A stretch of 64,000 nucleotides of DNA. Source: a virus. Position numbers and translations under genes: made by a program. Position 1 is the stretch's first letter. Each line of letters opens with the position of its first letter. This document shows positions 54,016-55,655 of the stretch, piece after piece. The notes beneath the pieces are model-generated. The model ran no database searches. It saw nothing but the letters and a program-made list of their open reading frames with translations, and was not told where the DNA came from. The stretch lies in IMG/VR virus record IMGVR_UViG_3300028840_006907, positions 384,001 through 448,000 of that record; one strand, written 5' to 3'.

Positions 54016-54399
54016 ATGTGGTGGATTTTTGATTTAGATGCTGAAAATCCAGGAATGTTATTATTGAAAATATTTCTCATGATCACTTTTTTAGGAGTTT
54101 CTTGGTTGAGTTATGAATTCTATCCAGATATTCTCGGTTTAAAAAGAGAAGCAGTTGTAAATAGTCATCAATATATTGAGGCAAGCAGAAGTAAACTTTC
54201 GAAACTGGCTACTGAGTATCGGTCAGCTTCAGTTGATATTGCAACTTATAAATCTGCTGAAGGTGATTTTGAGGAATTAATTGAACAATTAACTGCTCAG
54301 AAAATAGCCATTAAAGATCAGATAAAAACAGAAGTTACAAAAATACCAGAAAATGAAATTCCTTCAGAGGTAGTTAGAATATTGGAGGAAGAAGAGTGA
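54016..54399 (+). CDS. small membrane protein (N-terminal TM segment)
   Basis: 127-aa ORF, SD AAGGAGG upstream, hydrophobic 'LLLKIFLMITFLGVSWL'. Confidence 0.4.
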   Translation: MWWIFDLDAENPGMLLLKIFLMITFLGVSWLSYEFYPDILGLKREAVVNSHQYIEASRSKLSKLATEYRSASVDIATYKSAEGDFEELIEQLTAQKIAIKDQIKTEVTKIPENEIPSEVVRILEEEE

Positions 54400-55055
54400 A
54401 AAAGAAATGGCCTTTAATTTTAATAATATTTATGTCGTTAATGATGATTAACAGTGATAGTGACTGTGATTCTCAAGAACGTGAAGATAGAGCTTCAGTA
54501 AGGAAACAGCAAGAGCATTATCGTATAAGTCAACCAGTGCCTTTTTATGAATGGAGCATTGAACTTGATGCAGCTATCCAAATATATGATGCTAGGGTTC
54601 GGGATCGGGTAAGAACTTGGACAGTATGGCGTTCTGATTATGGTTTGATCGAAGGTCATTGTGCTTCTATTGGTTATCCTATTCCTTATGATGTTCAGTT
54701 AACCAATCCTCTTAAACCTGCTTATAATAGCAGTGGGTCTGTTGTAGAACAGGCAGAACCCAGTGGCCTTTATTCTTCTCATAATTCAATAGCTACATGG
54801 GTAAGAATGGTTCTTAATGTCAGAGGAAAAACAATGGTCACTCCTGTTTATATAGAATCAAAAGTAACTTGTTACGCGGTCCCTATAACAGTTGACTATG
54901 AAAAAAATAAAGTAACTATAATATCTGATGTAAAACCTTCTATTGTTTTAAAAGACAATGAGGCAATGTATAGAAAGAAAAAGTTAAGTGCACAGGATTC
55001 AGTAAATTTACAGAATCAGGTGGATAAATTGAAGAAAAAGAATAGTGATAAATAA
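54396..55055 (+). CDS. secreted/lipoprotein candidate, tandem paralogue A
   Basis: GTG start after GGAGG; signal peptide then Cys (…MMINSDSDC); core nearly identical to the 55086 product. Confidence 0.5.
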   Translation: MKKKWPLILIIFMSLMMINSDSDCDSQEREDRASVRKQQEHYRISQPVPFYEWSIELDAAIQIYDARVRDRVRTWTVWRSDYGLIEGHCASIGYPIPYDVQLTNPLKPAYNSSGSVVEQAEPSGLYSSHNSIATWVRMVLNVRGKTMVTPVYIESKVTCYAVPITVDYEKNKVTIISDVKPSIVLKDNEAMYRKKKLSAQDSVNLQNQVDKLKKKNSDK

Positions 55056-55085
55056 TTAATTATCTTTTGAAAATAGGAATAAAAA

Positions 55086-55655
55086 ATGAAAAATAAGATC
55101 CAAATAATATTAGTAATTATAATGTCAATCTTTTCGATGAATTTCGTTTGTGATTGGCAGGAACGTGAAGATAGAAAATCAGTAATAGCACAACAAGATC
55201 ATTATAGAAAAACGCAACCGGTGCCTTTTTACGAATGGAGCATTGAGCTTGACGCAGCAACACAAATTTATGATGCTAGGGTTCGGGATAAGGTGCGTAC
55301 ATGGACCGTGTGGCGTTCTGATTATGGCTTAATTGAAGGTCACTGTGCTTCGATAGGATATCCTATCCCTTATGACGTTCAATTAACAAATCCACTTAAA
55401 ACATCCTCAGATGGGGATGTCATTGAGCAAGCTGAACCAAATGGCCTTTATTCATCTCATAATTCCACAGCTACCTGGGTAAGAGAGGTAATAGAGATTA
55501 ATGGTAAAACAGTTGTAACTCCTACATATATAGAATCCAAAGTAACTTGTTACGCTTATCCTATAAAAGTTGATTATGAAAAAAACAGAGTTATTCGGAT
55601 GCCTAATGTAGCACCTTCAATAATATTGAAGGATAATAAACCCAAAAAGAAATAG
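55086..55655 (+). CDS. secreted/lipoprotein candidate, tandem paralogue B
   Basis: Signal peptide then Cys (…SMNFVC); 'QPVPFYEWSIELDAA.QIYDARVRD.VRTWTVWRSDYGLIEGHCASIGYPIPYDVQLTNPLK' shared with paralogue A. Confidence 0.5.
   Translation: MKNKIQIILVIIMSIFSMNFVCDWQEREDRKSVIAQQDHYRKTQPVPFYEWSIELDAATQIYDARVRDKVRTWTVWRSDYGLIEGHCASIGYPIPYDVQLTNPLKTSSDGDVIEQAEPNGLYSSHNSTATWVREVIEINGKTVVTPTYIESKVTCYAYPIKVDYEKNRVIRMPNVAPSIILKDNKPKKK

Follow-up and report, generated by a model that had tools for sequence, protein, structure and literature searches.

A Phage Cassette Pairing a Small Membrane Protein with a Conserved Exported Protein, Found in a Three-Gene Version in a Very Large Phage Genome

Gene Organization of the Locus

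We analyzed a stretch of viral DNA of 64,000 nucleotides, which covers positions 384,001 to 448,000 of the IMG/VR record IMGVR_UViG_3300028840_006907 and is called the window below. It comes from the genome of a very large tailed phage, on a contig of 469,617 bp, and all its listed genes lie on one strand. The locus studied here consists of three consecutive genes on the + strand: a gene for a small membrane protein (the partner gene, 54016..54399) and two tandem genes for exported proteins, copy A (54396..55055) and copy B (55086..55655). The three genes are a three-gene version of an obligate, phage-specific two-gene cassette composed of the membrane partner and an exported protein.

The partner gene codes for a single-pass membrane protein of 127 amino acids (aa). 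It has an acidic N-terminal tail, one hydrophobic transmembrane segment at about residues 13-31, and, close to the membrane, the conserved motif SHQYIEA. The charged stretch that follows is long and helix-like, and the protein ends with the motif IPxxEIPxxVxxIL. The stop codon of the partner gene overlaps the start codon of A (GTGA), and a Shine-Dalgarno-like GGAGGA (54384..54389, +), located within the end of the partner gene, stops 6 nt before the GTG of A. This arrangement suggests that the partner and A are translationally coupled.

Copy A starts with GTG and codes for 219 aa, while copy B starts with ATG and codes for 189 aa; they are the A-type and B-type paralogs of the PHROG 24725 family. 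An earlier note on this DNA described two adjacent genes at 54396-55655 with a hydrophobic signal, a Cys residue, and an acidic stretch, and both the coordinates and the N-termini are as it described. The N-terminus of A is MKKKWPLILIIFMSLMMINSDSDC followed by DSQERED and that of B is MKNKIQIILVIIMSIFSMNFVC followed by DWQERED. They are alike in having a basic n-region, a hydrophobic core, a Cys (C24 in A and C22 in B), and an acidic stretch. In a BLASTP comparison, 139 of 189 residues were identical (74%, E 2e-103). The nearly identical core quoted in the note, QPVPFYEW...LTNPLK, proved to be 62 residues long with two differences between the copies. At the DNA level, a repeat finder detected two repeats, 252 nt at 82% and 226 nt at 74%, with start-to-start spacings of 684 and 678 nt, respectively (a period of ~680 nt).

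The most conserved segment of A lies at 54672..54782 (+; GYPIPYDVQLTNP ... EQAEPSGLYSSHNS) and shows a proportion of nonsynonymous differences (pN) of 0 to 0.15. Its counterpart in B lies at 55356..55460 (+) and comprises residues 91-125 (GYPIPYDVQLTNP ... EQAEPNGLYSS); both segments contain invariant columns of the family. The alignment also delimits a basic C-terminal tail of 30 residues in A (54963..55052, +; AMYRKKKLSAQDSVNLQNQVDKLKKKNSDK). The tail occurs in A and, as seen in the alignment sequences P0004, P0008, P0009, and P0016, in A-type orthologs and several B-type orthologs, which indicates that it was lost in copy B of the window. On the antisense strand of the A/B region, there are only short open reading frames (ORFs) of 48-66 aa.

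Distribution and Conservation of the Family

Both copies matched PHROG 24725, a family of unassigned function, in hmmscan (E 2.4e-8 for A and 1.1e-8 for B). A tblastn search with B found the Clostridium phage phi3626 (5e-7) and the cyanophage S-SRM01 (3e-8), and reciprocal searches recovered the same set. The motifs G[YF][PG][IL]P...TNP and QA[DE]PNG[LI][FY] are common to the window copies and the family. A word-indexed search returned 327 relatives, all of them unnamed, 174-220 aa long, and devoid of Pfam domains, some of which are encoded on contigs of 123-586 kb. In a full search of 1.84 billion representative proteins with a hidden Markov model (HMM), 671 clusters were obtained at E <= 1e-3 and 429 at E <= 1e-10. 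The best 150 of the 671 clusters were all short, single-domain proteins with no fusions. Mean column identity within the family is 45-49%, and about 19-28 columns are invariant.

Among 50,697 deposited phage genomes, the family is present in four lineages only: Thalassavirus (T5-like Vibrio phages such as Cody), the N4-like Vibrio phage PG11, the Synechococcus cyanomyovirus S-SRM01, and the temperate Clostridium perfringens phage phi3626, in which the member is Gp45. The branch of phi3626 accounts for 248 matches, including records of Clostridium perfringens (a contig of 2.98 Mb), Romboutsia, and Clostridium. In IMG/VR, the family was found at 39 loci on contigs of 13-409 kb. No family member occurs among 72,556 plasmid records, and a scan of GTDB genomes gave three contigs of metagenome-assembled genomes (MAGs) only, which are probably misbinned phage DNA. 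On these records, the family is specific to phages and prophages, and its hosts include bacteria with and without an outer membrane. Judged from this occurrence, the cassette is an autonomous unit that moves horizontally between phages of very different kinds and is found in monoderm as well as diderm hosts.

Pfam, NCBIfam, and PADLOC contained no significant match to A, B, the partner, or the homologs of these proteins in cultured phages, and scans against PHROG gave families of no assigned function only.

The Obligate Pair

Homologs of the partner are 92-153 aa long and occupied the same place in every context examined. A homolog is located directly upstream of the exported gene at the loci L003, L004, L005, and L010-L015, in Cody (gp163), PG11, phi3626 (Gp44), and S-SRM01; at L016 and L017, the upstream gene was taken as the partner from its position and size only. 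An HMM of the partner matched directly upstream in 38 of the 39 IMG/VR loci, the exception being a locus cut by the contig end, and partner homologs were present in 49 of 52 non-redundant loci. In an all-against-all BLAST comparison of these 52 loci, only the partner and the exported gene recurred, and no conserved third gene was found. A cluster that recurred in 15 of the loci was considered as a candidate third gene and rejected, as it is made up of antisense shadow ORFs within the family gene. A NADAR gene, which follows the cassette in the window, is present in three of the 52 loci.

Evolution is much faster in the partner than in the exported protein: the word-indexed search gave 11 matches for the former versus 327 for the latter. 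The same pair of an upstream partner and an exported protein is found in phi3626, where the genes for Gp44 and Gp45 overlap by 8 nt. Gp45 defines PHROG 24725 and Gp44 defines PHROG 26268, both without an assigned function. The partner of the window is too diverged to match PHROG 26268 directly, and its probable kinship with Gp44 rests on architecture, gene position, and a motif (SKSYVES in Gp44 and SHQYIEA in the window partner). The partner HMM was built from sequences that included Gp44, so it offers no independent evidence on this kinship.

Age of the Duplication and Selection

The copies are phage-encoded, exported tandem paralogs, as the earlier note held, and they differ at the DNA level. 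Their codon alignment shows 74.1% nucleotide identity and 54.5% identity at third positions, which rules out an assembly artefact or chance similarity. The note further proposed a recent duplication followed by diversifying selection, and neither proposal agrees with the alignment. Synonymous divergence (dS) is 1.29 and nonsynonymous divergence (dN) is 0.18, with a dN/dS ratio (omega) of 0.14. Within codons 76-105, the most conserved 30 codons, no amino-acid change was observed (pN 0), while the proportion of synonymous differences (pS) was 0.60. The near-identity of the core is therefore due to strong purifying selection and not to recent duplication or gene conversion. The claim that divergence is mainly C-terminal holds in part. 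Divergence is greatest in the signal and anchor region (pN 0.35), and the last third comes next (pN 0.19), together with the 30-residue tail that only A possesses.

In a neighbor-joining tree of ~126 family members, A grouped with P0010 and P0012-P0017, and B with P0002-P0009. On an independent contig of 5.9 kb (L016), an A-type gene (P0016) and a B-type gene (P0007) stand in the same order and behind the same upstream genes. Since the A- and B-type proteins form separate clades and have tandem orthologs on this contig, the duplication predates the divergence of the phage group to which the window belongs, and both copies have been kept. The duplication is thus old, and both copies are under purifying selection.

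Tandem duplication of the exported gene is rare. One intact copy is present in 37 of the 39 IMG/VR loci, and in the remaining two (L054 and L056) the exported gene is split. The sole tandem pair seen besides the window clade is that of L010, a contig of 10.9 kb binned in a Candidatus Uhrbacteria MAG, on which two family genes (5872..6492 and 6601..7203) stand behind one partner gene. The two copies of L010 fall apart in the tree, and this duplication is therefore separate from that of the window and is also old. A different arrangement was noticed on the IMG/VR contig 3300023283_000076 (270,653 bp), which carries the cassette twice (L030 and L056), ~69 kb apart. There, the cassettes lie inside a larger duplicated block with at least four other genes, and the exported-protein gene of L056 is in fragments.

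Export Signals and Cysteine Residues

The export signal of A (54396..54467, +) is composed of MKKK, a 14-residue hydrophobic core, and NSDSD before C24. That of B (55086..55151, +) is composed of MKNK, the hydrophobic core IQIILVIIMSIF with a length of 12-17 residues, and SMNFV before C22. The peak Kyte-Doolittle hydropathy over 11 residues is 3.03 for A and 3.05 for B. Export of the A/B family proteins is well supported by these predicted signals.

The earlier note took both proteins for lipoproteins, and this is correct for the family as a whole, most members of which are predicted lipoproteins; neither A nor B has a canonical lipobox. Both have the basic n-region and the hydrophobic h-region of a lipoprotein signal. 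The sequences before the Cys, S-D-S-D-C in A and N-F-V-C in B, do not conform to the pattern [LVI][ASTVI][GAS]-C (PROSITE PS51257-type), and the residues at position -1 (Asp in A and Val in B) are non-canonical. Mutagenesis of Escherichia coli Lpp reportedly showed that neither Val nor Asp is substrate-like at this position. Position +2 is Asp in both copies. For A, a signal peptidase (SPase) I-type site, I-N-S/D, is possible.

The window Cys aligns with a Cys found in 98% of family members. A strict PROSITE-type lipobox is present in 74 of 120 relatives from the window branch and in 114 of 120 proteins from the phi3626 branch. Within the window clade, the contexts of the Cys are conserved yet non-canonical (NF[VI]C, NMIC, GLIC, and SDSDC). 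The members from Vibrio phages have SPase I sites and no Cys there: ...SQAFA/GWG in Cody and ...STGVWA/MASPP in PG11, after the start of the latter was corrected to position 4929 of L007. These signal sequences establish the product of the second gene as a predicted lipoprotein in most phages and a predicted soluble periplasmic protein in Vibrio phages.

In the window branch, 90 of 120 proteins contain exactly two Cys residues after the QQxxY motif. The second Cys falls into one of two mutually exclusive columns: both are occupied in 1 protein, only one of them in 56 and 64, respectively, and neither in 5. A Fisher test of this distribution ran on related sequences, and its p-value overstates the significance. 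The pattern is consistent with a disulfide bond whose partner Cys migrates, and with an oxidizing, extracytoplasmic compartment. That the Clostridia branch lacks the Cys pair was considered as evidence for a periplasmic disulfide and then dropped, because the Cys residues of this branch follow a pattern of their own.

Predicted Structure

An AlphaFold model of full-length B was mediocre, with a predicted local distance difference test score (pLDDT) of 74.9. The model of mature B (167 aa), computed from 114 sequences, was confident, with a pLDDT of 87.1 and a predicted template modeling score of 0.69. The predicted mature fold is an alpha/beta globular domain of ~165 residues in which two helices are followed by eight strands. 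The segments GYPIPYDVQLTNP and EQAEPNGLYSS form long loops between strands 3 and 4 and hold most of the invariant columns. They are also the parts with the lowest model confidence (pLDDT 59-75, with 59 in the EQAEPNG block). Conserved loops modeled with low confidence are typical of a binding site that becomes ordered on a ligand or a partner, and these loops may form such a site.

A Foldseek search against BFVD gave one unnamed match with a TM-score (template modeling score) of 0.44. The exported protein had no fold match in the PDB, and a sequence-profile search of the PDB gave nothing (best E 0.46). As far as tested, the predicted fold has no known relative.

Genomic Position of the Cassette

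In the window, tail genes (tape measure, baseplate wedge, and fibre) occupy 1-38 kb. They are followed by helicase genes (39.6-43.5 kb) and a PolA gene with a LAGLIDADG insertion (44.1-47.9 kb; 44090..47878, +). A sigma-like gene, a glycosyltransferase gene, and an AAA ATPase gene are located between PolA and the cassette, and the cassette is followed by a Zn-ribbon gene, the NADAR gene, and a major-vault-protein-like gene. No terminator-like site was found at 53-57 kb of the window.

The cassette of PG11 has an RNA polymerase gene on one side and the genes for an AAA ATPase and a DNA polymerase on the other, and the structural genes lie on the opposite strand. In phi3626, the cassette is located between the genes for a single-stranded DNA-binding protein, a SpoIIID-like regulator, and a recombinase. 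No wall hydrolase or holin gene was recorded within ~8 kb of the window cassette, no endolysin or holin gene recurred in the 52 cassette loci, and no wall enzyme was consistently adjacent to the cassette in them. The position of the cassette is that of an early/middle accessory unit among replication genes, and it is not a lysis cassette.

Possible Function of the Cassette

The explanation that we favor, which we regard as plausible though short of likely, is drawn by analogy: an early complex tethered to the membrane would shield the envelope of the infected cell, providing superinfection exclusion and/or protection of the wall, including protection against lysis from without. The genes would be co-transcribed with early/middle genes of the replication type and translationally coupled. 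A lipid or signal anchor of its own, the partner, or both would keep the exported protein on the outer side of the cytoplasmic membrane, and the exported protein and the partner would act there together. The conserved flexible loops PYDxxLTNP and QAEPNGLY may bind a target that monoderm and diderm bacteria have in common; candidates are peptidoglycan, an enzyme of wall processing, and the apparatus by which an incoming phage delivers its genome. The two paralogs of the window would then present the same binding site on differently anchored and tailed scaffolds. The functional step of this envelope-protection proposal, taken alone, is weaker than the whole statement. Superinfection exclusion had also been named in the earlier note, and in a broad sense it is a possible role of A and B.

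The favored functional analogy is with the superinfection exclusion of T4, for which a membrane protein (Imm) and an exported protein of the envelope (Sp, or spackle) are made early in lytic infection; no common ancestry is implied. The adjacent genes traS and traT of the F plasmid code for an inner-membrane protein and a lipoprotein, which exclude the incoming DNA of related elements. They resemble the cassette in role only and share no ancestry with it; unlike them, the cassette is confined to phages and prophages, is absent from the plasmid records, and has no Pfam match to the TraT and TraS models. Like T5 Llp, phi80/N15 Cor, and Streptococcus thermophilus TP-J34 Ltp, the family comprises phage-encoded exported lipoproteins at the cell envelope. 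Those proteins, however, are small and lineage-specific, act alone, and are encoded beside receptor-binding or lysogeny genes, whereas the PHROG 24725 family is broadly conserved, is always paired with a membrane protein, and is unrelated to PDB structures. A and B showed no sequence or fold similarity to these characterized exclusion lipoproteins (Llp, Cor, and Ltp) or to T4 Sp.

Several points weigh against envelope protection by the membrane-tethered complex. Known exclusion proteins are usually lineage-specific and fast-evolving, and the PHROG 24725 family is unusually conserved. The exclusion genes of prophages are normally found in the lysogeny module, and the cassette of the temperate phage phi3626 lies in the early lytic/replication region, not in the lysogeny module. 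The topology of the partner is also a difficulty. By the positive-inside rule, the Lys/Arg bias places the N-terminus in the cytoplasm at 16 loci and the C-terminus at 11, with 11 loci tied. Cody leans strongly to a cytoplasmic N-terminus, and the window clade, with its acidic N-terminal tail and Lys/Arg residues after the membrane segment, to a cytoplasmic C-terminus. If the C-terminal domain of the partner is cytoplasmic in the window clade, as this bias leans, it would oppose direct binding to the exported protein. Lipidation, the apparent default of the family, is doubtful for A and B themselves because of Val (B) and Asp (A) at position -1. Finally, searches of the literature by accession, PHROG identifier, and keyword found nothing on the family or on the function of any member.

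Four other explanations were weighed against this one. A takeover of the cell wall or division, in which peptidoglycan or a conserved wall or divisome component outside the cytoplasm is the target of the exported domain and the effect is early division arrest or wall remodeling, appears unlikely. Conservation over monoderm and diderm hosts would imply a universal target, the early/replication context fits such a role, and aromatic, Asn, Gln, and acidic residues abound in the conserved loops, which is common in sugar-binding sites. The layout of the partner, one membrane segment and then a coiled coil, is also that of FtsB, FtsL, and DivIC. However, in Pfam the partner matches neither DivIC nor FtsL and gives only weak noise of the coiled-coil type, wall enzymes are not consistently adjacent, and the proposal is founded on architecture only. 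We consider it improbable that the cassette controls the timing of lysis as an antiholin-like sensor or regulator made early and comparable in role to T4 RI with the holin T. A single-pass membrane protein paired with a periplasmic or lipid-anchored protein could play such a role in monoderm and diderm hosts alike, and the early context is compatible with it, but linkage to holin or endolysin genes is lacking in the 52 loci and the PDB contains no structural match. Moreover, conservation is much stronger in the exported domain than in the partner (327 versus 11 matches), which is unexpected if that domain recognizes a phage-specific holin.

Receptor masking was among the functions proposed in the earlier note: recently duplicated surface lipoproteins under diversifying selection would mask a receptor, as T5 Llp and Cor do, or track a variable surface molecule. 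Phage lipoproteins of the receptor-masking or exclusion kind, T5 Llp and Ltp, are reportedly known, and the products here are exported, belong to a mostly lipoprotein family, and occur in two divergent copies. Such a function predicts lineage-specific fast evolution, whereas the family keeps invariant motifs over phages of Vibrio, Synechococcus, Clostridium, and many uncultured hosts, which are unrelated to each other. The values of dS and omega, the invariant core, the tandem orthologs of both paralogs elsewhere, the distance of the cassette from receptor-binding genes (the tail genes end near 38 kb), and the lack of a PDB fold match also speak against receptor masking, and we judge it quite improbable. 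The note had also suggested an outer-membrane spanin component, and in a two-component spanin of the lambda Rz/Rz1 type, whose parts join the inner and the outer membrane by fusion during lysis, the partner would take the place of the i-spanin and A or B that of the o-spanin. The two systems have the same gene architecture, in which the gene for a small protein with an N-terminal membrane segment and a helical domain overlaps a downstream gene, and the latter codes for an exported product whose Cys comes after the signal sequence; both systems are phage-specific. In contrast to spanins, the cassette is present in the C. perfringens phage phi3626 and in many records and prophages of Clostridia, which have no outer membrane, and its Vibrio-phage members lack a lipid anchor. 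Its mature product is predicted to be a conserved globular domain of ~165 aa (the model with pLDDT 87.1) instead of a short peptide rich in Pro. A and B lack a canonical lipobox and carry Asp at +2, and there is no sequence similarity to spanins. The cassette also lies in early/replication regions with no endolysin or holin gene recurring nearby. The members in Clostridia, the lack of an anchor in the Vibrio members, and the combination of globular domain and genomic position led us to exclude a spanin from further consideration as extremely improbable.

Phage envelope proteins encoded by a pair of genes for a membrane protein and a lipoprotein are a kind already known. The obligate pairing, the breadth of host types, and the orphan fold appear not to have been described previously. 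Tentatively, the cassette may represent a new, widespread class of envelope effector in which the membrane partner and an exported protein with an unseen fold act on something that monoderm and diderm bacteria share, for example peptidoglycan, a wall enzyme, or the divisome. If this is true, the cassette would mediate an envelope takeover or exclusion independent of host range, in phages from temperate siphoviruses of 33 kb to genomes of >400 kb. The early exported proteins of phages are among the least understood phage gene products. To our knowledge, the few that have been characterized (Imm/Sp, Llp, Cor, Ltp, and Sim) are each confined to a narrow lineage. The cassette stands out as an obligate pair, strongly conserved and with no PDB fold match, that is found in T5-like, N4-like, T4-like cyanophage, temperate Clostridium, and huge phages. 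Determination of its function in one tractable phage would annotate hundreds of 'hypothetical' genes and may reveal a conserved weak point of the envelope exploited in Gram-positive and Gram-negative bacteria.

Neighboring Genes

The AAA ATPase gene of the window (51710..53299, +) lies two genes upstream of the cassette. Its product matched the IetA models of PADLOC (E 2.9e-24) and PHROG 8638. An AAA ATPase gene is also present upstream of the cassette in L017 and downstream of it in PG11, but the association does not hold throughout. Directly after B, a gene for a Zn-ribbon protein of 65 aa is located (55674..55871, +), which belongs to PHROG 2834 and is weakly Lar-like. L004 and L016 likewise have a gene of about this size after the cassette (65 aa and 64 aa, respectively), and that of L016 gave a Lar_restr_allev match.

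The next gene (55893..56729) codes for a NADAR-domain protein (PF08719, E 1.5e-51). It contains a repeat at 56368..56457, consisting of three in-frame copies of 30 nt that match at 98% and encode RRNNTMNNEN-like decapeptides just after the domain. The following gene (56804..59245, +) codes for a protein of 813 aa with matches to the shoulder domain of the eukaryotic major vault protein (PF11978, E 1.4e-23) and to the vault repeat (PF17795, 3e-11). This vault-like protein also weakly matches SPFH/Band 7, and a long ORF is likewise found downstream of the L016 cassette. In S-SRM01 (L009), the gene directly after the cassette (4486..4893) is annotated as 'membrane protease subunit'; its product belongs to PHROG 11227 and has an N-terminal membrane segment. 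It recalls the SPFH-like gene near the window cassette, and the association is not general.

The PolA gene codes for a family-A DNA polymerase of 1262 aa. According to precomputed Pfam matches, the polymerase is split by a LAGLIDADG_3 homing-endonuclease domain, and this insertion is probably an intein.

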